Source: Eledone cirrhosa (taxonomy: Eukaryota). Taken from it: DNA of 64,000 nt. Location of the stretch: the NCBI GenBank assembly GCA_964016885.1, contig OZ024743.1, forward strand, positions 320,602,001-320,666,000. Reading direction: 5' to 3'. The notes below the pieces were generated by a model. The model was not told the DNA's origin, made no database searches, and was given only the letters and a program-made list of their open reading frames with translations. A program made the position numbers and the translations under genes. The first letter of the stretch is position 1. Each line of letters starts with the position of its first letter. Positions 9,000 to 64,000 of this stretch are shown here, piece by piece.

Positions 9000-9074
9000 C
9001 GAAGGAAATGTGGTAAGGAGCCATTTGGACCATAACGCACCAAGTACTCAATACTTAGGGTAGTAGAGTGTGTA

Positions 9075-12000
9075 ATAGGAACGAGTTGGACCCCGACGGC
9101 TGAGCTCAAGCCGTTTCGACGGCTAATTCTGGACTAAATGAAAATTTTTATCCTGGTATATGCTTCTCAGGGGGTAATTCCATATATGGTAAAAGTGATT
9201 GTCACAAGGATTGGTCAAAAGTTTGTTGTTGAGACACATAATTCTATCATGGGAATTTGTGGGGGGAATGGGTAGCTGAACCTGCCAGTAGAAGAAAGAA
9301 GGAGAGGGAGTGTAGGAAACCCAGTCGTGCGTTGATTGTGCCAACTACAGCAGAGCAGGAGGTCAAGCAAGTATACTAGGGAGGGTGGGGGGAGTCGAAA
9401 CAATAAGTAAATCAATATGGAGTAAATATATAGAAGAATACCAAGAATGTTAAAAATATAAAAAAAAAATTCTGGTTACTATTCCCTAACGACAGTCATC
9501 AAGTCTCTCTCTGGTACTGCTAAACTATAGAAAAGTTTACTAGGTGGGATGGAATTGTAATGAGACCATCTTAAGAGTTAGTAGTAATCAACCGAGTATA
9601 TCTTACGGTGACAGGTCAACAAGTGGGGGGCCAAAATACTAAAGAAACTACCACGAAATAATAATTCAGAGCCCCGAAACTAATACGAAATAAATGTTTC
9701 TACCCTAGGTACAAGGCCAGCAACCACCCAGTGCAAAAAATAAACTAATACGAAATAATAATTAAGAATCCCGAAAAGAAATACTATTACTATCTCTAAG
9801 GGTGCCGCTACGATACAAAAATTATATTGCAAACTACATAAATGCTCTACGAGGTATATGAAAAATTTGATACGGAAAATAATTTAGAATCCCCACCCCC
9901 CACCCCCCAAAAAAATACTGATATACGAGAAATTAAAGCAGAGATACCACTAAGAAATGTAGAAAGCACGTAAATGGGGCAGCCATCGGATAAGAAAGCA
10001 AGTATCTGGTGTCTATCACATCTGCTATAAAAAGCGGAGTCGGCCAATTCTATCATAGAATAGGGGTGGGGGTGGGGGTACTGAGGCGTCAAAGGACCGA
10101 GGGGCTGCCTCGGGTGGGCGAGAAAATCAAAAGGATGACGACAAAGAAGGAGGACTTGGGAGGAAGGACTAGGAAGGGATGGGGGGAAGAAGGAAATATA
10201 GAGGAAACGATAAAAGTTATAAAAGAAGCTCTTACGTCTACCTTTGCAAGTAGGGGTTACCCATTACAAAATCAGCAAGTGGGGTGTTACAGCTCCTGTC
10301 TACCCCCCCCCCACCCCCACCCCGGGTCATTATGGGGTTTGAGGGCGAGGTAAGTCCTACGCAATCTGTGTTTGCATGCAGTTACCAGTTCGTCTTTCTT
10401 GTTTAGGAGTTGGTCCGTCGAAAACAGCATTTGTAAAGTTTACTCCGAGCATAAATTGCACGGACGGCGTCCTCCCGTGTAAGAGTTGGCTCTGGACAGT
10501 AAGCTCCAAGTGAGATCATAGGTAATATTGTTATCGTTGAGGTCCCAGATGTGGCCCGAAAGTGTGGTGGCGTGACGCCGGGCCGGGTTTCGGAAAGTAT
10601 GTCTGTGTTGGTATAGCCGGGACTTGAAGTCACATGCGGTTAATGCTATATAAGCTTTGTTGGAGGTGTCCGTTCTCACGTTGCACTGGTAGATCACATT
10701 ACGATCTCTGCATCTGTTGTCGAGGGGGCAAATGGATCCATCAGGATAGTTGCACCTCCTGGTCGGCTCTCCACTGCTATTTAAGTTATTTCTTCCATAG
10801 GGGTTGAGTTTTTTGTTTTTAGAGGAGACGATGTTTTGTGCAAAGTTTGGTGTGGTGCTGTAGGAGAGTTCGATGGTATTTTTGTTGATTATGTTGTGGT
10901 AGCGGTGTTGTAGTGGGAAGTGTTTTTCGATGAGCCTAAAGAAGATTTGTATCTCTGAACTGGTAGGTCTAGAGATCGCTACCCGCCTGTTTTTGCGTCA
11001 ATCGATCACCAATACTTTATTATAACAAGTCAATTCTTCTTTCTTGATTTTCGTCGTCCTTTTCATTTTCTCGCTCACTCGAGGCAGCCCCTCGCTCCTT
11101 TGCAGCCTCAGTACCCTCACCCCCATCACCTATTCTATGATAGAATTGGCCGACTCCGCTTTTTATAGCAGATGTGACAGACCCCAGATACTTGCTTTCT
11201 TATCCGATGGCTGCCCCATTTCCGTGCTTTCTACATTTCTTAGTGGTATCTCTGCTTTAATTTCTCGTATATCAGTATTTTTGGGGTGGTGGTGGGGTGG
11301 GGTGGGGGGATTCTGAATTATTTTCCGTATCAAATTTTTCATATACATCGTACTAGTATTTATGTAGTTTGCAATAGAATTTTTGTATCGTAGCGGCACC
11401 TTTAGAGATAGTATTAGTATTCATTTTCGGGATTCTGAATTATTATCTTGTATTAGTTTATTTTTTGCACTGGGTGGTTGCTGGCCTTGTGCGTAGGGTA
11501 GAAACATTTATTTCGTATTAGTTTCGGGACTCTGAATTATTATTTCGTGGTAGTTTCTTTAGTATTTTGGCCCCCTCCCCCCACACTTGTTGATCTGTCA
11601 CCGTAAGATATACTCGGTTGATTACTACTAACTCTTAAGATGGTCTCATTACAATTCCGTCCCACCTAGTAAACTTTTCTATAGTTTAGCAGTACCAGTG
11701 AGCGACTTGATGACTGTCGTTAGGGAATAGTAACCAGAAATTCTTTTTTTTATATTTTTAAGATTCTTGGTATTCTTCTATATATTTACTCCATATTGAT
11801 TTACTTATTGTTTCGACTTCCCCCCTATCCCTAGTATACTTGCTTGACCTCCTGCCCTGCTGTAGTTGGCACTATCAACGCACGACTGGGTTTCTTCCAC
11901 TCCCTCTCCTTCTTTCTTCTACTGGCAGGTTCAGCTACCCATTCCCCCCACACATTCCCATGATAGAATTATGTGTCTCAACAACAAACTTTTGACCAAT

Positions 12001-12140
12001 CTTTGTGACAATCACTTTTACCATATATGGAATTACCCCCTGAGAAGCTCGGCTATTCATATACCGGGATAAACATTATCATTTAGTCCAGAATTAGCCG
12101 TCGAAACGGCTTGAGCTCAGCCGTCGGGGTCCTACTCGTT

Positions 12141-12144
<4 letters not shown>
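9075..12144 (-). mobile_element. 5'-truncated Penelope-like element (GIY-YIG C-terminus at ~10350-10950) flanked by ~1-kb inverted pseudo-LTRs (~9075-10085 and ~11103-12144), next to (TA)n tracts
   Basis: FFRLIEKHFPLQHRYHNIINKNTIELSYS, CNYPDGSICPLDNRC..VIYQC, FKSRLYQHRHTF, CNLCSE and LLNKKDELVTACKH motifs; the two arms are reverse complements. Confidence 0.85.
12035..12130 (+). ncRNA. Type I hammerhead-like motif with non-canonical CUGAGAA core (broken inverted copy at 9090-9175)
   Basis: acccc-CTGAGAA-(cggcta...tagccg)-GAAA-cggc[ttgagctca]gccg-TC-ggggt; stems I and III pair, C3:A8 mismatch. Confidence 0.55.
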
Positions 12145-12194
<50 letters not shown>

Positions 12195-14417: not shown

Positions 14418-14528
14418 CAACAGAACAATCTTTCCCTGAGAATCCACCCTTACATAAGCAAGAGTATGTTTTGCCGCTGTTTTTACAAACTCCTCCATTT
14501 TGGCATGGTTTCGTGTCACAGGGTTCAA
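14418..14528 (-). CDS. Exon: EGF-like domain (VEPCDTKPCQNGGVCKNSGKTYSCLCKGGFSGKDCSV)
   Basis: Acceptor tttgcag, donor gtaaga; 111 nt, phase 1 to 1; six Cys. Confidence 0.92.
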
Positions 14529-14745
14529 CTGCAAATCAATATTTAAATAGATATTAAATATTCTAATCATCAGTTATCAATAAATGCATCGACTGAAAAT
14601 GATCCACATTTTTACAAAGAAATAAACTACGTCCTTGTGAAGAAATTTAACAAATAGAAGAGTGAATCGCAATAAATTAAAAGTTAATGTGTTTTAAACT
14701 AGTTTAAACTAGTTTTAAATAGTTCTTAAGATTATCTTGAATTCC

Positions 14746-14820: not shown

Positions 14821-15314
14821 TGTTGTTAATAATGGGTTATTTCCCATTGTTATATAGTGCAATATCTAATAATGGAACTATAGGCTGGTGACAAGACATT
14901 AAATGTATCATCATAATCAGGGCTTTTTGATATGTGTACTTATTATCAGCTATATGATTATTGACGATTTATTTGATAATTTCTTGTGGTTATTTATATT
15001 CTATGTATTAATCTATGTTTTTTGTTAATCCTGTTATTGAAAATTATAATACAACCCCGAGTTTATGGATGACTTTCTATGTCATGTCGTATTGTCATCA
15101 TTTACACGATAACAATGAATCTAATATAAGAAACCATCATTATCAATAGAGTGGATTGGCAGTATCGGTAGAGGGTCGGACGCCATGCTTTGCAGCAAAG
15201 AGATACGGCCCTTTATGGTGTGAGTTCAAATCCTTGCACCTAAACCAGAAACCATTATATTTATTAAGGCTTAGACATAAGTATGTCAATAATTAATTGT
15301 TATGTTCTACTTAT

Positions 15315-15428
15315 CAACAGTACAATCTGTCCCCGACAATACAGCCATATAATAGCAACTGTAAATTTTGACGTTGTTGGTACAAACACCTCGATTTTGG
15401 CATGGTTTCTTGCCACACGGATCAACAA
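15315..15428 (-). pseudogene. EGF pseudoexon (DPCGKKPCQNRGVCTNNVKIYSCYYMAVLSGTDCTV)
   Basis: Paralogue of exon 14418-14528 with the same upstream intron flank; Cys5 changed to Tyr and donor GT changed to AT (ataagt). Confidence 0.8.
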
Positions 15429-15803
15429 CTTCAAATCAATATTTAAATAGATATTAAATAATCATTAGTTATTAATAGCTGTGTTGTGTCAAAATTACAC
15501 ATAGTGAATGTTAATATTTCGATTATTTCTAGAAAATGTATGCTTAATTTAAAACATTTTGAAGACCATACGCTATTGTTTTAAAATAGTGACATTGTCA
15601 CTATTTAAAAACAATAGCGTATGGTCTTCAAAATACTTTTAATTAAGCATACAGCGTATTGCAAAATACACTATATATGCATTCATATATATATCGGTAT
15701 TTCAGAGCACCAATTCTAATTTTCAATTTCTGCTGGGCCGGCGACTGCTCTGTATAATCAGTTCCTGATTATTACTGGAATTCTATAAGAATCCAACACA
15801 CAT

Positions 15804-15899
15804 AATTTTCAGCAAACAGGTGGAGTAGTGAGCTTTGATAAGTACCAAAAAGTACGAAACAGAGCTCTGTCAGTTTATCTCCCCTGTTTGCGGAAAATT
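15804..15899 (+). ncRNA. Type I hammerhead ribozyme, U3:A8 core variant, extended stem I
   Basis: gagct-TTGATAA-gtac[caaaaa]gtac-GAAA-cagagctctg-TC-agttt; flanks aattttc.gcaaacagg and cctgtttgc.gaaaatt pair; predicted cleavage after C15871. Confidence 0.75.
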
Positions 15900-15999
15900 T
15901 AAATAAGTGACATAGTCAGTATTTTAAAACAATAGTGTATGGTCTTCAAAATGATTTTAATTAAGCATACATTGTATTACAAAATACACTATATATACA

Positions 16000-16059
<60 letters not shown>

Positions 16060-16062
<3 letters not shown>

Positions 16063-16690
16063 GGAATGTATAGAAGTGACACACGAGTTGATATACATAA
16101 AAAATAGTCATAAAGGAAAATGAACAGTAGAAAATACTAAAAGGATTCTCTCTCAGAATAACATCATAACATTTAATAACAAAATAGGGATTTCCGCATT
16201 TAATTGTACCGGTTTCAGCATATATGCTTTCTCAACGAGGGAGGGTCATGGGATAGGTGTGGTAGTAATACCAGGGCTATGGTAAGGAAGGGGAAGACGG
16301 AGAAGGGGTGGATGAAGCAGAAGGGGACGACAGGAAGGTGTAGTAGTAATAGTATCACAATTAATAACGGTAATGGGAGCTGTCCGTGGGGTTGACTTAA
16401 AAGATTGAGTGACCTTAGAGTTGACTGAGGAACTAATTGTTTCTAAAAATATATATATTTGTATTTCTGTCTGTAATGCTGTCATTCTTAAATTGACCTG
16501 CAGTGTGAATGTTTCAAAGAGATCTTCCTTAATTTGTCCAAGGTGCTAATTTGAAAGTGTGCCAGCTGCAATTTCGTTTGAAATAGATGCATTTAGAGGG
16601 GATTCGGATTTAGCGATAAAATGTGATTCCTTGATAATGCGCTGGGTGTAGAAAGCGTTGTCTTTAAATGTGTAGAGGGGTAAATTCTGC
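16060..16690 (-). mobile_element. Penelope-like 3' remnant with a degenerate UUGAGAA hammerhead motif at ~16203-16240
   Basis: Minus-strand QRIIKESHFIAKSESPLN resembles a GIY-YIG C-terminus; TTGAGAA-agc[atatat]gct-GAAA-ccgg-TA. Confidence 0.55.
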
Positions 16691-17352
16691 TATGTCAAAA
16701 ACCTTATTAAAAGAAACACTATTGCTACTGTACTACACCAGTCCCTTACCTTCATGTCTTCCTATCACATAGGTTATCTCGATAAGCAATACAATATCTC
16801 ATATTGATCGAATTAAACGAATCTAGAATTCGTTTGCAGCTTAGCTATATTGAAACGTTCATTGAGCCAAGATTAGAAGAACCATGTAAATTATCCTAGT
16901 GAGACGTAGAACAAAATATTGACAAAACAATAAAGAAAATTAAATGTTGTCGTGAACATGCACAGTGTCCCTGTATTGATTATTTGCGGGTTTCTGTAGA
17001 GGGGGCTATTATCATAGGCTAGACGAACGTGTGTAATTTTTCCCTTGATTCTGAAATGTTCACGTCTGTTTTACTTGGGCAAGGAGTTCAGTTAACTATT
17101 TTCCTGTTTCCTCCATGGCAAGCCATCGGGGAAAGAGCATAAGACTAAAATATAAGACTACGATGATCTCCATATAACAATACATACATTATAATACATT
17201 TTAATAATAATAGTATTGATATTATTGCATGTAATAGTCTTAGTACCTGTTACAAGGATTTTAACTCTAAACAGCTCAAATATATTTAAAACACAAAGAC
17301 TAAGACATATGAAACAACAATGTGCTGATGATATGCCGCAACATTTCAGCCG

Positions 17353-19210
17353 CAACATTTAACAGCTGAATTAGAAACTACCGAGCTAAACAGTCACTAC
17401 TCTGTTTCAACGACATCGCTTTACTCAGTTCTCTGAATTTTTATGCAATAGTATCCGCATAACTGTTCCTTATTTTCTTATCCGTCAACGCTTTCCACTT
17501 AATTCTGTAGACGACTTAAAGCTGCCAGATCTGTGGGCTCTCTTGACATTAGTTAGTCTCAAGTTACAAATAACTAGATGGTGATCAATTAACAGTTCAG
17601 CCTCTCTCTTAATATGTACAACCAGCAGAGAATCGAAAAGATCAGAGTCAATAACAACATAATTTTATTTCTATCTCTGATTCCTTTCATACCATGTATA
17701 TTTATGGATGAATGATTGAAGAAGGTGTTCATATTAAGGAGCCAAATACTAGAAAAGAAGTCTAGTAAGGCATAATTAGAATAATTAATTAATCAGAGCT
17801 ATTTATCAAATTAAAAATACGAGTAAATAATAGAGAAAAATATACCTAATTGCATCGCTGGCCGGGCAGCCTCAGTATCGATTATGTGTTTATAATATGC
17901 CGTAACCCTGTAGGGATTACTGAACTAAATATTTTACATCTTTTATGTTCTTTACATCTGATGACGCCGCCAATTGTGTTACGTAATGGTTTGATCAAAC
18001 TAAAATGCGAGGAAATATTAGACAAAAATATACGTATTTTTTCTTCAAAATCCTGACTGCAGTTTCGCCAAATTACTTTGCTGCATAGATGCACTATAGA
18101 AGTGAATGATTACTGAAAAGCAATTAGGCGAAACTGCAGTCTGGACTGTGAAGAAAAATAGGTATATTTTTCTATATTATTTACTCGCATTTTTAGTTTG
18201 ATAAATAGCTCTGATTAATTGATTATTTTAACTCTTTCGGTCATTGAGCAAAACTGGTCAACGCCGGAGCCGTATACACATATACTAGTGCATCTTTCTG
18301 TGCATCTCATTACTATTAGTATATATATGTGTGTGTGTATGTGTGCGCGTGTGTATGCATTTAAAAAATTATATTTTCGTAACGTTGTATGAGAAATATT
18401 TCACACGCCAAAATATAATACAAAATACACTTAGTCAATTTTCAGGAACACTTGTTTCTAGAAGTAAAGCTGTAATGAATCTGAAGGTGCCTGGCCATCA
18501 ACATCGTTTGTGCAGTCGAGAAAATATTAAAGGTATGGCATTTAACTAATTACAGGATCGGAAGACTACTTAGTTTGCATATCATCATCATTTATTCATT
18601 GATTAATTGAATACGTTAAGAGTTCAACGAAGATTATAATTGATTAACCATAATTAAAACCCATGTTAATACTTCAAGGATTATGAGAAGTTCTCTTCTA
18701 GTACCCCATATCCTTCATACGGCTGTACATCCTAATTTCGGGTTATGCAAAGATATGAAGGGAAAATTTATAGATTTTCAAGTAAGTGCTCAAAATATCG
18801 ATACATAATTTCGTACATACCTCCACAAGTTTTTTCAACCAATTTCTTTTCGATTGATTTTAGAACATCAAAGTTGTCGACTGAAAATACATATTCCCTG
18901 CTTGGCGAACTACCAATCGTACTTAACTCAGCTTTTCCAATACCTTTGCCGATTCCAATAGCAAAAACTATCGTGTTCTCTTTTCGTAATTTCCTTGCTG
19001 CCTCAGCTGTTAAGGTTGCATTTTTAGATTTTCCATCAGTTATAACGATAGCAATATTCGGGGCATTTTGTCTATCTCCATTGCTTGCCTTAAAAGCACT
19101 AGTTCTCAAGTAATTAAGAACCTTGTGCGTGTAAGTAGATCCTCTCTTGTAAGGTATTCTATCGATAGCTTTTATTATGTCGTTCTTCGTATAATATTTC
19201 TTCAGGTAAA
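17353..19210. repeat. Segmental duplication copy 1 (VWA exon plus downstream intron), near-identical to 62613-64000
   Basis: Direct sequence match with offset 44790 at the exon; a ~470-bp block (~17605-18077) is absent from the second copy. Confidence 0.92.
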
Positions 19211-20058: not shown

Positions 20059-21899
20059 AATAAAAGTGGAAATTAAATGCAAGAACATGTTTAATTGTAA
20101 AGAAAAAGAAAGATGTCGATGGCGGTCAATTGGCAAAATTGATAATGCACTGTGCCTTAATCAGAAACCGTTACTTTTTTTAATCTCTTTATATTCTTAA
20201 GTGAATAACCTCAAGGTCAAATTTCCTGTTCAACATTTCAAGGTCGATAAATAAAGTACCACGAAATGGCTGATGTCGAATTTGTTGCATTATTCTACCT
20301 ATAAAACTGTGTCCCTGTGTCTAAATTATTAACCATTAAAATTTGCTTCGAATTGATAATGCCTTGCCCATGGTGTGAGCTGTTCCTAGCAGTGTTTTTC
20401 TGTGGAAAGATTATTGCCCTGTGCACCCTAGTACAGCGTCAATGTTTTGTTGTTATTTTTAACATACAGCAGTGTTTTTACACTACATATTGTATAGTGA
20501 CAGTTGTTTCACTATTTTTCTAGCAATATTTTGGTCAGTAGTAATTTCAATATATATTAGTGTACACGTGTGGGTTTGTTAAATCTTTGACTATTTTATT
20601 TTGATAGTTTGCCTTGATTTCATTTTCTGTTTTTTATGGGCATATTCCAGAGGTTTTTCGCCAAGCTGATGTCATATACCGTGTTTAGTATATTTTTATA
20701 CTGCTTCTTGTCCAGTTTCATGAAGATTTGTCATACTGTCCAGTGCATATGGTTGTCAATTGGAGCATACTCGTGTATATATTCAGAATTGGGAAGAACC
20801 GGGCCTTCAGAGGTAATGGAGTCAACAGTAATGCTTGTACGTTCTCCATTTAGTTTTAGGATCCGTTTTTATTATTCTATTCTCATAGTTCTTCATGACC
20901 AAACTTTCGCTTCATGAACTAGTACTTCCGTTTTTGTTTTGACCCTGAAGCATCTGAGCCTTTCCTGGCATACAAGTTGATATCATTTTCTTCTGACACG
21001 CCTTACCAAATATTGGCCATGGTATTGTCTATCCCAGCCTGTCTTCGATTCTAGCTTATTAGACATGTCGACTCTAACGGCACTCTCGAAGTGAATGTTG
21101 ATAACAACGTAGATATATTTGACATCAGAGGTTTTGCTGACATCTGCGTAATAGATATTAAGACAAACCATAGCTTATTGCTACTATATTGCCATCAGTT
21201 GAGGCTCCGGAAATTGTCACAAATTAAGCAAGGCAATATGTCCCACTACTTCATCATTATCAGCAGTAATGGCCAGGGGCAAGTAGCATCCAGCAGTAGA
21301 AATGTCCAAGCTACCAGTGTCTTTTCAGTGAGAACTTAAAAATGGGTCTTCCGAATCATCATAATGAGTCAATGAGGTTAAAATATAACTTGTTTACAGA
21401 ACGTGAAACAACGTGAATAGAAAAGAGTGAAAAAAAAAATGGTCGACCATTTCTACACACCCGCGGTTTCAACACCCAGAACACAATCTCAAACAAAACC
21501 CACTGGACTCTCGAATTACTTTAACTTGAGAGCTAGCCTAACGTGAAATTGCCATAGCATCTTAAGGAAAGTGACGAAACATTAAACTGATGTGGCAGGT
21601 AAAATGACCCTTATAAGGAAGCAGATTTGATGAAGAAAACAGCAACTTTCTAGCCACGAATTGAGATCCTCTTTCTAAAGTTGGAGAGCAATTATAGTCA
21701 GCATTGAGGCTGTTGATAAAGAAATGTTTTTTTTTTATGTGCGTGGTTTGACTGTAACAATGCCAGGATTGAATATTGAATGGGATGTTGGATATACGGA
21801 TGGATGGATTGATAAATTGATAAATAGATAGAAAGACAGATATTTAGATAGATAGATAGATAGATACGAACTTTATGTAGCTATACCGGACATTTCTCC

Positions 21900-22460
21900 T
21901 ATCTCCTCGAGGCGATCTACTGCAACTGGCTACAGAACGGGAGAATTTCCTGTTCTGTGACCAAGGGCGTAGTCTCGCTAGTGAGGAAGGACGAGAATAA
22001 GGGGGATGAAATAAGTAATTTCAGGCCCATAACTCTGCTAAATGCGGAGTTAAAGATTTTGGCCAAGGTGTTAGCAAAGAGGTTGGCGATTGTCGTGGGC
22101 AACCTGGTGGGAGATGCGCAGACATGCGCTATCCCGTCCAGGTCCATTCACGACAACCTCCACCTCATGCCATACATCATAAAGAGGGTAGTGAATGAAC
22201 CCGGCTTTGGTGGTGCCCTGATCAACTTAGATGAATCTAAGGCGTTCGATTGGGTCGACCATGGTTAACTGGATGCGGTGCTAGCGGCGGCAGGTTTCGG
22301 ACCCGTTTTCAGAGGCTAGATCACTGCCATGCACAGCAGCCGCATCTGCTGTAGAGTCAAGGTGAATGGGTACCTCTCGAAGCCGTTCGAAATGACGCAG
22401 TCCATCCGACAAGGGTGCCCGCTCTCCTCCCTTCTGTATGTATTGGCCTTGATTCTGAAA
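21900..22460 (+). mobile_element. L1/Tx1-clade reverse transcriptase fragment (pseudogenised)
   Basis: NFRPITLLNAELKILAKVLAKRL, INLDESKAFDWVDH and RQGCPLS motifs; stop codon after VDHG. Confidence 0.85.
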
Positions 22461-36759: not shown

Positions 36760-39291
36760 CTGTAAAATCAAATTTATGTAATGAAAGATTTGCTTTGATG
36801 ATTTGTGTTCGAATTTCTGTTTAAGATGATGTTGAATATTTAAGATACATAAGCTGAACAGCATATCTATAGGATTGATGTTATGTGCATGTATATGTAA
36901 TAATATTTAAGTTATACAGATAAACATATATATAATAGCAAGTATACATGGTCATGTTTGTTTACAACGAGGATTTTAACACTAAACAGTGCTCAAACAC
37001 TCCTTCCAGCAGTACCTGTCAGAAGCTACCTGTCTCTAACTGATCCGGCTGGATCCCCAAGCCTGACCAGCCAAGCTCATGGATGTTATCTAACCATCTT
37101 GCTCGGGATCTACCCCTGGGTTTCTGCCGCTTGGTTTTGTCCGTAAAGTATGTCCAGCGATTCTTACCTGAGACATCTAACCACATGCCCACAGTATCGG
37201 AGCTGTGATCTCTACATTCGGAGAAGTAGCGGCTCTACATAGAATGAGTCTCAAATCCCCGTTACTCTAAATACCCATCAGAGGAATTCTATTTCTGCCA
37301 CTTGTATTCGCAATTTGTATACTTCGGTCATTACAAAAGATACATGACCATAGGTAAGGGTTAGCAGGAAAAATTAATTAAAGATAGCGAGATTGGCTTT
37401 TACGCCTACATCCCTTCTGAATGCTGCAGTTGGCGGATTACTACTCCAGCTTTTGCAATTCTTGCATTTAATTCAGCCTCCTGCCTTCCATCACTCGAGA
37501 ACACGGCCCCGAGATATTTGAACTTCTCTACCTGCTTCAGTGAAACTCCATTCATATGTAGCGTGCAGTGTTCAGGCTTTCTTGAGTGGACGAGTGTCTC
37601 AGTTTTTGAAGCACTGATTTTCATTCCAGCCATGCAGCACTCGGCATCAAACGTATTATGTCGAACAGCTGCTGTCATGTGTGGGACGCATCCAGTTGTC
37701 AGCCGAGTCCATCGTGAGGATCACCCCGCCGCCTTCATTTAAGAACGAAGGAGAGACGGTTTTTCTGTCTGGTGGCTATGGCGAGAGAGGTAATATGGTG
37801 GACGATGTTAAAAAGACTGAGGGCAAACACCTTTCTCTCCGGACAACAACTTATCCCCTTATTTAAGTATCACTTCAGAAGGAAGGTGAGAGAGGAGAGA
37901 GAGGTGTTACACCCCAGTAAATTCGCTGAAAGGTGGGTGAATGTGGCAAAAATGCACCGTGTGAATGGGCCCTCTCTCTATATAAACCTGCAGGTTGACT
38001 AAGATAAACAGAGGGAAGACAGGAACACCTACAAAACGTGTTCTTGGTGTTGAGGGTTGTTCTATCCACGGGGTGTAAAACAACCCTGCAGTAACGTTCC
38101 GCCATACTGGGGATTTCAATTGATATATTATTATATATAGTTTATTGTTATTTATTAATGTTAAAGTTATTTTTATGTAAAACCCCCGCCGTTACGTCTT
38201 GTAATGTCCCATTTTTGTACGCCCCTCTGGCAATTAAAGAAAGATATCTATCTATCTATATATCTATCTACTTCTCTCTTATATTCTTTGGAAGAAACCA
38301 GCTGTATTCAAACTTGGAGAGGTGATGGGCGTTGCCTGTGATAAAATATCACAAACACGTTATATGTCAAGACAATGCCTTTATGACACCATCAGCTATT
38401 GACGGCTATACATATATACAACCATATCAAGTTAATGATAATTTTGGATAGAAATGTTAGATAATTTATTATAACCTTATTACATAAAATATAAGATTAT
38501 TACAGATTAACTAACATTTCTAATTAGTTAATCAGGCTATACATTGCATTTACCCTGTTATGTAATGTAAATTAGCCGACTCTTATTTGCGTCTTTGATT
38601 GATATATGCTGCTTCTCATTCCATGGACAGATTTCGCGCATTGTGTACTAGATAAAACGTCTGTAAAAACTCGAAACAAGTCAGATCGATCTAATAATTT
38701 CTGACTACAAAGAGATTTGAACTATGGTAAGCCATTTTCTTTACTTTTCATAACAGACCTAAAATAGTATCTTTGTTAACTTATATATGTATATAACTTA
38801 TATTTCGAATGATAAAATCTTTGCAGAGAACAAATAAATACAGACCTGAATGTCGTATTGCTGATAGAAATGATTGAAATGTAACCAATGGTAAAGTTTT
38901 CAAAAACAAAAACTAACTTTAAATCAACTATGATACAGAAGATCATAAGAGAAGCTATATATTTTCATACGAGTGTCATTAAATAGTATACCAACAGCAA
39001 CAACAACAACAAAAACGAATAAAACTAAGAGGAAATACATTTGAAATACGATGTTTTCACTTTTTAAATATTTCAAAATGTCTATATTTAGAAAATGAAA
39101 ATGTTTATTGAAAGTTTAAAAGAAAAACATTTGAGCAACATCTAAAATAAGTGTATATATTTGTATTTTTTCGCTGGTAGCCGTCAGGGGGCTGCAGTCA
39201 TGCTGTGACATAATATTTAAGGTTCGTTTAGTCTATTGTGACCAGTCCACTAATTTGATTGGACTTTCATTCCACACAATTCCAACCACCC

Positions 39292-62245: not shown

Positions 62246-63610
62246 TCAATTGTATCCGGGTTTAGAAGATTAGCAAATTGTGTTCTGAACCCCACATGGA
62301 TGTATCTCTTTGAAGAGAGGAGGACTGAAATCACGTTTCTGATAGCAGGTTTCGAATAGGAATTTGTATTACGAAGTCGGTGGATGGTCTGCCAAAATAA
62401 TTTATCTGCTATCTGACGTCTTCCCTTGTCTTAACTTTGGACGCCATTATTGTCTCTGTTGCGACATTTTGCGCCTGATTTACCGCAAGTGATAAATGGG
62501 GAAACTATTTACAAGTCAATCTTTGTAGGTCTCCTTCTTTAGTCAGATGGCATATTTGACCCCTTTATTGGACCAATGGACCACCCAGTGTCACGCCAAA
62601 CCAATTTCGGCTACAACATTTAACAGCTGAATTAGAAACTACCGAGCTAAACAGTCACTACTCTGTTTCAACGCCATCGCTTTACTCAGTTCTCTGAATT
62701 TGTATGCAATAGTATCCGCATAACTGTTCCTTATTTTCTTATCCGTCAACGCTTCCCACTTAATTCCGTAGACGTCTTAACACTGCCAGATCTGTGGGCT
62801 CTCTTGACATTAGTTAGTCTCAAGTTACAAATAACTAGATGGTGATCAATTAACAATTCAGCCTCTCTTGCTGCATAGATGCACGAGAGAAGTGAATGAT
62901 TACTGAAAAGCAATTTGGCGAAACTGCAGTCTGGACTGTGAATAAAAATAGGTATATTTTTCTCTATTATTTACTCGCATTTTTAGTTTGATAAATAGCT
63001 CTGATTAATTGATTATTTTAACTCTTTCGGTCATTGAGCAAAACTAGTCAACGCCGGAGCCGTATACACATATACTAGTGCATCTTTCTGTGCAACTCAT
63101 TACTATTAGTATATATATGTGTGTGTGTATGTGTGCGCGTGTGTATGCATTTAAAAAATTATATTTTCGTAACGTTGTATGAGAAATATTTCACACGCCA
63201 AAATATAATACAAAATACACTTAGTCAATTTTCAGGAACACTTGTTTCTAGAAGTAAAGCTGTAATGAATCTGAAGGTGCCTGGCCATCAACATCGTTTG
63301 TGCAGTCGAGAAAATATTAAAGGTATGGCATTTAACTAATTACAGGATCGGAAGACCACTTAGTTTGCATATCATCATCATTTATTCATTGATTAATTGA
63401 ATACGTTAAGAGTTCAACGAAGACTATAATTGATTAACCATAATTAAAACCCATGTTAATACTTCAAGGATTATGAGAAGTTCTCTTCTAGTACCCCATA
63501 TCCTTCATACGGCTGTACATCCTAATTTCGGGTTATGCAAAGATATGAAGGGAACATTTATAGATTTTCAAGTAAGTGCTCAAAATATCGATACATAATG
63601 TCGTACATAC

Positions 63611-64000
63611 CTCCACAAGTTTTTTCAACCAATTTCTTTTCGATTGATTTTAGAACATCAAAGTTGTCGACTGAAAATACATATTCACTGCTTGGCGAGC
63701 TACCAATCGTATTTAACTCAGCTTTTCCAATACCTTTGCCGATTCCAATAGCAAAAACTATCGTGTTCTCTTTTCGTAATTTCCTTGCTGCCTCAGCTGT
63801 TAAGGTTGCATTTTTAGATTTTCCATCAGTTATAACGATAGCAATATTCGGGGCATTTTGTCTATCTCCATTGCTTGCCTTAAAAGCACTAGTTCTCAAG
63901 TAATTAAGAACCTTGTGCGTGTAAGTAGATCCTCTCTTGTAAGGTATTCTATCGATAGCTTTTATTATGTCGTTCTTCGTATAATATTTCTTCAGGTAAA
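63611..64000 (-). CDS. Exon: VWA domain (5' part beyond the window end), near-identical to 18821-19387
   Basis: Donor gtatgt at 63605-63610; phase 1 joins the VWD exon at 60609; two visible substitutions in the ORF-track overlap (LNT/LST, SSE/SRE). Confidence 0.92.

Follow-up and report, generated by a model that had tools for sequence, protein, structure and literature searches.

The window, by which is meant the entire 64-kb stretch of DNA analysed here, holds on its minus strand exons of a host gene that encode VWA, VWD, EGF and C8 domains (Pfam matches in six of the eight ORFs scanned, one of the six being a LINE reverse transcriptase). All tblastn matches of three Octopus homologues fall on this strand (61/61, 40/40 and 61/61), and the top identities of the VWA exon among 39 matches, 56-58%, are to three Octopus proteins. 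An intron of this gene, extending from a VWA donor near 18820 to an EGF exon copy that starts near 15428, contains a hammerhead ribozyme motif at 15804-15899 on the plus strand, antisense to the host gene. The initial annotation had called the motif intronic, which is correct as to its place but implies no action on the pre-mRNA. Given the antisense position, the host pre-mRNA would not be cut, and no core with a pairing 3:8 was found on the pre-mRNA strand over the hammerhead stretch. That the hammerhead acts on the host gene is extremely improbable, and the locus is unlikely to matter to that gene.

Several other observations concern the host gene and its surroundings. The EGF exon copy at the end of the intron (15313-15428, minus strand) looks dead, lacking one cysteine and the GT usual at the donor; an intact copy lies at ~14418-14530, ~900 bp away. 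Between 23100 and 51700 there are about ten tandem ~3-kb units of 95-98% identity, each holding one host-gene EGF exon and a LINE-like fragment, an arrangement that appears to be a recent exon amplification. A 1,133-bp duplicate with the VWA exon (18078-19210 and 62868-64000; 98.8% identity) is far closer than other paralogous exons (~70-77%), as would be left by a recent duplication or gene conversion. A LINE-type reverse transcriptase fragment (RVT_1) occupies 21864-22268 on the plus strand.

Structurally, the motif belongs to the type I hammerheads: helices II and III are closed and helix I is open, with 6, 4 and 4 bp in helices I, II and III, respectively (Table 1). It combines the elements of a type I core, a Watson-Crick 3:8 pair, GAAA and a UH triplet, with the 3:8 position occupied by the compensatory pair of U3 (15835) with A8 (15840), an accepted covariant of the hammerhead core (PMC3088659). 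Its geometry agrees with the canonical metazoan type I form, which has 6 bp in helix I and 4 bp in helix II (PMC4209133). Here and below, PMC3088659, PMC3884650, PMC4209133, PMC6155905, PMC7229834, PMC8557442, PMC11167929 and bioRxiv 10.64898/2026.07.22.740005 are cited for those portions of each source that treat the point in question. Cleavage is predicted 3' of C17 (15871). Stem III is contained in an exact 12-nt palindrome at 15859-15870, and beyond helix I a 3x1 internal loop leads to 20 more pairs that reach 15804/15899, broken by one bulge and one A-G mismatch (15811/15892). The UUGAUAA core with its U3:A8 pair, the GUC triplet, the palindromic stem III and a stem I extension of about 20 bp had all been proposed in the initial annotation and are borne out; the inverted arm and the terminal (TA)n listed in Table 1 were absent from it.

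Table 1. Coordinates of the hammerhead, the repeat element that carries it and the host intron, numbered from the first letter of the window
Feature	Position	Strand	Basis
Host intron, approximate bounds, VWA exon to EGF exon copy	15431-18820	-	tblastn, Pfam
5' arm in inverted orientation (~60 bp; reverse-complements the unit start)	15535-15594	-	
Hairpin centre of inversion	15585-15605	.	
Full repeat unit, 318 nt, 34% GC, one hammerhead	15596-15913	+	repeat spacing
Internal short (TA)n of unit	~15684-15694		
Stem I extension, 5' strand, and 5' side of loop 1 (15826-28)	15804-15828	+	
Helix I, 6 bp, two G-U wobbles	15829-15834/15872-15877	+	pairing check
Catalytic core U3-A9, UUGAUAA	15835-15841	+	read from sequence, descriptor match
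Stem II, 4 bp, loop CAAAAA	15842-45/15852-55	+	pair probability ~1.0
G12-A15.1 (GAAA)	15856-59	+	descriptor, pairing check
Stem III, 4 bp, loop AGCU	15859-62/15867-70	+	pairing check
U16.1 and C17 (C17=15871), triplet GUC	3' of stem III	+	
Helix I and extension, 3' strand	15872-15899	+	
Second unit, incomplete, stopping at the (TA)n of the unit; identity to first 90%	15914-16003	+	
(TA)35 microsatellite at element 3' end	15990-16059	.	

A descriptor search that allowed any pairing 3:8 on both strands of the 64-kb window gave three raw matches, of which the hammerhead alone scores at least 11 paired positions; its score is 14, and a match of at least 13 arose in 1 of 300 Markov-simulated windows. 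The region 15804-15899 folds with z=-5.37, and none of 200 shuffles folded equally well. With the Rfam model HH9 (RF02275) the hammerhead reaches 19.9 bits, the gathering score being 52, and a scan of the whole window with Rfam found no match at gathering. Rfam matches of miRNA type in the window were rejected as hairpin or TA artefacts, and a scan for bacterial promoters, irrelevant here, was at chance (4 vs 5.8).

Patterns specific to the element found no loci in metagenome and viral contigs. A generic U3:A8 pattern is present at 120 or more metagenome loci, and at least three of the four stem II pairs can form in 17 of 120 among the matches listed. Two of these 17, chosen by eye for an Rfam scan, both match hammerhead models below gathering (L050, 23.7 against 52 bits; L102, 24 against 34). 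The first (L050:678-741, minus strand) is an HH9-like type I hammerhead with U3:A8 that sits in a ~88-nt tandem with a decayed second copy, opposite in strand to a protein-coding exon of a eukaryote-like contig; blastn finds no match between L050 and the window. The second (L102:130-174, plus strand) is a Hammerhead_1-like U3:A8 motif with a poor stem I. With these two unrelated hammerhead-like motifs, the U3:A8 variant is not rare. Common to the window motif and these two (n=3) are a CAG after GAAA and an AGCU loop, a likeness that would fit an avoidance by U3 of pairing with stem III. Among viral contigs, the C3:G8 pattern matched 53 loci, 10 of them with a full stem II, and none of the 53 passed the type I descriptor. 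Eight viral loci (L128, L139, L140, L153, L160, L165, L168 and L172) combine CUGAUGA, the canonical core, with a stem II that pairs, and are probably phage hammerheads of different topology.

The hammerhead is part of a 318-nt unit of which the locus holds about 1.3 copies, with the hammerhead present once. The direct repeats at 15580-15694 and 15898-16012 (115 nt, 90% identical, spacing 318) are the overlap of this partial tandem and not LTRs; the flanking repeats of the initial annotation are therefore real but are not LTR-like ends. No ORF of 100 aa or more lies over the unit, none lies in or adjoins the element, and the circular fold of the unit (rotation 15595-15912) has z=-7.5 against 100 shuffles. 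At the 5' side the element is inverted about a short hairpin, and a similar hairpin recurs within the unit at 15903-15922. The inverted arm is likely a foldback made at insertion, and the (TA)35 run the likely insertion target. An extension of the arm to 15505 was rejected on the grounds of a weak match and single-copy depth there.

That this unit belongs to a large family is evident from sequencing contigs taken from four of ten runs (one of these, X6, covers only 9 of 30 bins) and aligned to the stretch; their depth is a rough guide rather than a copy number. Bins 15532-15995 have a depth of 25,304-592,738 in run X1, where a unique flank contig has 37.5; the core bins, at 38,128 and 43,784, stand at ~1,000-1,170 times the flank depth. 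The rise from 53.7 to 82,353 at the bin starting at 15532 coincides with the edge of the inverted arm. With ~1,000-fold depth and divergent contigs, the element is a dispersed multi-copy family. Contigs with 8-21 differing letters bridge the internal junctions of the unit, from repeat to middle (X4 records 10 and 11; X5 records 22 and 23), from middle to hammerhead (X1 record 5; X4 record 12; X5 record 24) and from hammerhead to repeat (X1 records 7 and 8; X4 record 14), and at the junction at 15697 an X1 contig has 33 letters on each side; no single contig among those listed for the aligned runs spans the whole stretch, nor did these show any tandem array with at least two complete units. The unique flanks have no depth in X4, so that the contigs of this run come from other copies and the 318-nt order holds for the family as a whole. 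A loose end of X4 before 15604 resembles 15901-15922 and not the inverted arm, placing the 3' flank of the hammerhead upstream of the repeat. From the bridging contigs and this loose end follows the order of a head-to-tail 318-nt unit that makes ~1.3 turns at this locus. The small non-autonomous retrozyme-like element of the initial annotation is in this way confirmed as a non-coding repetitive unit.

The same data bear on the possibility that a MITE-like hairpin DNA transposon gave rise to the repeats and that an unrelated piece with the hammerhead came to lie between two copies. The 92% palindrome at 15537-15653 would suit such an origin, as would the uneven depth in X1, which peaks near 15649-15726 and is lowest over the hammerhead. 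Contigs of other copies are nevertheless continuous through repeat, middle and hammerhead, the well-matched arm is only ~60 nt long and no target-site duplication is evident by reading the sequence, all of which make a MITE-like origin highly improbable. A fragment upstream, at 15151-15258, stems from a separate, SINE-like short repeat that is far more abundant (in X1 its depth reaches 6.8 million) and recurs at ~56289 and ~59281; it resembles an octopus SINE.

In its non-coding unit within the range of ~170-400 nt, its GC content below 45% and its type I hammerhead, the element agrees with non-LTR retrozymes. It is distinct from plant-type LTR retrozymes, in which a type III motif lies inside each LTR, whereas here a type I motif lies between the repeats, and also from autonomous Penelope-like elements (PLEs), whose ORF with reverse transcriptase and GIY-YIG domains between pseudo-LTRs has no counterpart in or next to the element. 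At the same time this one locus bears the signature of a PLE insertion, with a partial tandem, an inverted 5' copy and a microsatellite target. Inverted 5'-truncated copies, partial tandems and a bias towards (TA)n are hallmarks of PLEs (PMC8557442), and their presence here points to a PLE helper. The Penelope link of the initial annotation is accordingly probable, from the inverted arm and the (TA)n end, although the dimeric hammerhead with which it had been associated is not supported. The locus is probably best explained as about 1.3 units of an abundant 318-nt repeat, likely a non-LTR retrozyme inserted by a PLE, with a U3:A8 type I hammerhead that is antisense to the host gene and probably inert here.

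A possible course of events can be sketched by analogy with the retrozymes of coral, mussel and axolotl. Transcripts of tandem master copies would be cleaved at C17 and closed by ligation into circles of 318 nt. The (TA)n target might then be nicked by the endonuclease/reverse transcriptase of a PLE; copying would begin at the TA run of the unit itself and make ~1.3 turns of the circle, or pass along a linear multimer, and a foldback at the unit's short hairpin would yield the 60-bp inverted arm. The copy in the window would since have drifted by at least 4% from the family. At this one locus, the 3' end coincides with the TA run of the unit and the inversion with its hairpin, which suggests that copying was primed at the former and folded back at the latter. 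In vitro, a PLE nicks AT-rich DNA and its reverse transcriptase starts at an internal site lacking homology to the target (PMC11167929), which argues against simple TA pairing as the primer step. With only one hammerhead, the window copy cannot by itself release a unit-length RNA.

In a closely related alternative, an autonomous PLE supplied the unit as its pseudo-LTR or 3' end, and the locus is a 5'-truncated partial tandem of that PLE, with no independent circular RNA. Both repeat copies finish at the TA run, the inverted arm and (TA)n end would be expected from it as well, a U3-A8 core has been published from a PLE (PMC4209133), and a 2026 preprint traces animal retrozymes to pLTRs (bioRxiv 10.64898/2026.07.22.740005). 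However, the 15694/15695 junction is bridged in other copies in X4 and X5 and so is a fixed feature of the family, not the result of a single template switch; the 6/4/4 form of the hammerhead is canonical rather than the minimal one of PLEs; and no ORF adjoins the element. This origin is therefore quite unlikely, and insertion of a non-LTR retrozyme by a PLE helper is preferred.

A Penelope-like remnant is also found in the window, at 9057-12145, 3.4 kb from the element. A piece of its ORF (10443-10997, minus strand) falls in atlas clusters with GIY-YIG at 0.94-0.95; this support comes from the atlas only, as the piece has no Pfam, PDB or longer-protein match. The remnant consists of a 92% inverted repeat (9075-10158 / 11031-12145) with a (TA)n end at 12145, and both arms contain a degenerate hammerhead-like motif (~12035-12130, plus strand; ~9090-9175, minus strand) in which stems I and III have 5 bp each, the loop of stem II is long and positions 3 and 8 are mismatched. 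The copy of this motif at 12 kb was not detected by the Rfam scan. The ends of the remnant are the same in style as those of the element, and its presence so near speaks for a PLE helper; against this, it shares no sequence with the 318-nt unit.

Differences between the window copy and its family are drawn from 40 of 140 rows. At 12 or more places in 302 nt (15596-15897) another letter is found in over half of the X1 depth, which puts the divergence of the window copy from the majority sequence of its family at 4% or more. At 15892, 99% of the family depth in X1 reads U, which closes the 15811/15892 mismatch, and at 15828, 78% of the X1 depth differs, giving a UAC loop 1 as in the HH9 consensus. 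Positions 15835 and 15840 do not appear among these 40 of 140 rows, in which the near-fixed, lower-depth change at 15892 is present; from these rows U3:A8 is probably the family norm.

It might be supposed that the motif is a domesticated intronic ribozyme that regulates the RNA of its host gene, in the manner of amniote HH9/HH10. Loop II and loop 1 are HH9-like, and the 40 of 140 X1 difference rows include no majority change in 15835-15871. Yet a 37-nt core would remain unmutated with a chance of 15-22% at 4-5% drift, so its intactness gives no sign of selection on the window copy, which moreover belongs to a high-copy repeat, runs antisense to the host gene and differs from its family in both loop 1 and the stem I extension. 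Domestication is scarcely credible on these grounds.

Whether the hammerhead forms at all is a further issue, since its own palindrome offers a competing partner. In the best predicted fold, 15830-37 pairs with 15860-67, burying the core (U3-G5) and stem III, with stem II and the outer extension present in both this and the hammerhead fold. The folding model has neither tertiary nor Mg2+ terms. In this model the hammerhead fold of 15804-15899 lies 5.0 kcal/mol above the best fold, and that of the bare motif 8.1; the gap is 5.9 kcal/mol with three majority letters and 2.6-2.9 kcal/mol with an inserted C that is found in 13% of the X1 depth. A hypothetical C3:G8 core raises every gap tested by ~3 kcal/mol, that of 15804-15899 to about +8, because C3-U4-G5 would pair perfectly with the palindrome. 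The three stems can pair, as the initial annotation had stated, at 6, 4 and 4 bp, but the best predicted fold buries the core; similarly, "well-formed" suits the anatomy but neither the competing fold nor the departures of loop 1 and the stem I extension from the family. Alternative folds are a recognised cause of inactive descriptor matches (PMC3884650), and most metazoan retrozyme circles are predicted to be unblocked, with the exception of some mussel circles (PMC7229834). Efficient cleavage in vitro is doubtful for the window copy and likely for young copies of the family, and the hammerhead is probably inert at the window locus.

The window copy could still be an efficient ribozyme if it worked as a dimer through its palindromic stem III. 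The exact 12-nt palindrome is what such a dimer would use, U3:A8 cores are active in vitro (PMC3088659), and tertiary and Mg2+ contributions lie outside the folding model. The predicted energies speak otherwise: relative to the best fold of a tandem dimer, the double hammerhead costs 9.1 kcal/mol and two monomers cost 10.0, a gain of only 0.9 kcal/mol. The locus has a single hammerhead, and single cloned repeats of the coral and mussel retrozymes are cut by their hammerheads (PMC7229834). Dependence on dimers is tied to a very short stem III (PMC4209133, PMC7229834); here stem III has 4 bp and a tetraloop, and the dimeric hammerhead inferred from the palindrome in the initial annotation is not upheld. 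An efficient dimeric ribozyme is very improbable, and a copy that is probably inert remains the preferred reading.

A broader and more speculative proposal, which we regard as unlikely, would join these strands. An undescribed cephalopod retrozyme family may have fixed U3:A8 because its palindromic stem III pairs with the 5' strand of the core; U3 would weaken the self-blocking helix by ~3 kcal/mol, such that multimers would be cut and circles would stay closed, and the insertions would carry Penelope fingerprints, namely an inverted 5' arm, a (TA)n target and more than one turn of the unit. If this were true, these fingerprints would be direct structural evidence of PLE enzymes copying retrozyme circles, and the competing fold offers a testable reason for a natural family to prefer U3:A8.

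Comparison with known systems places the element most closely with the metazoan non-LTR retrozymes of Acropora, Mytilus and Ambystoma (PMC7229834), which are ~300 bp in length with GC below 45%. Like these, it is a low-GC, non-coding, strongly self-paired unit of ~300 nt with one type I hammerhead per unit, head-to-tail order and high copy. Solo retrozyme copies are common, also in introns (PMC7229834, bioRxiv 10.64898/2026.07.22.740005), and the preprint, a survey of vertebrates, describes retrozymes as non-autonomous elements derived from PLEs that are frequently solo and, in Xenopus, more than 40% intronic. Unlike those retrozymes, the window element has a U3:A8 core and ~1.3 units, falling short of the "active" definition of the preprint (two units with hammerheads; bioRxiv 10.64898/2026.07.22.740005). 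Its predicted fold is self-blocked, as the relevant portion of PMC7229834 reports for some mussel circles only.

The amniote HH9/HH10 motifs (RF02275; PMC6155905) share with the window motif the type I topology, the CAAAAA loop II and an intronic position, and the HH9 loop 1 is similar to that of the family majority. They are described as conserved, isolated motifs thought to act on host mRNA (PMC6155905). The window motif is unlike them, being antisense, repetitive and decaying and scoring 19.9 of 52 bits. HH9/HH10 themselves lie in the sense orientation of their host introns.

The U3:A8 core is already known, from a Schistosoma PLE (Perreault 2011); it is found in nature and active in vitro (PMC3088659), and U3-A8 occurs in ~1,300 minimal motifs of the Schistosoma mansoni Cercyon PLE (PMC4209133). 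The window hammerhead resembles those of Cercyon in its core covariation, its palindromic stem III region, its PLE link and its single copy, as the Cercyon motifs are also mostly single (PMC4209133). It is, however, full-size, with 6 bp in helix I, a loop 1, an extension and 4 bp in helix III, and lies in a small non-coding unit, whereas the Cercyon motif is minimal and lies in the pLTR of an ORF-bearing element. With insertions of EN+ PLEs such as Neptune and Naiad (PMC8557442) the locus shares the partial tandem, the inverted 5'-truncated copy, the (TA)n end and the lack of an evident target-site duplication; unlike those elements it has no RT/GIY-YIG ORF, and no 30-40-bp tail was identified.

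The window element is probably a new member of the known class of non-LTR retrozymes. Among the papers listed by a literature search, which left most subscription journals outside its scope, none was on a cephalopod retrozyme. With the element the class reaches a likely octopod host and gains a full-size U3:A8 hammerhead of a kind missed by CUGAnGA searches and Rfam gathering cut-offs. Arguments over which autonomous element mobilises animal retrozymes still draw on co-occurrence and on similarity to pLTRs; should the inverted arm and (TA)n end prove common to most copies of this family, the question of the mover becomes directly testable.
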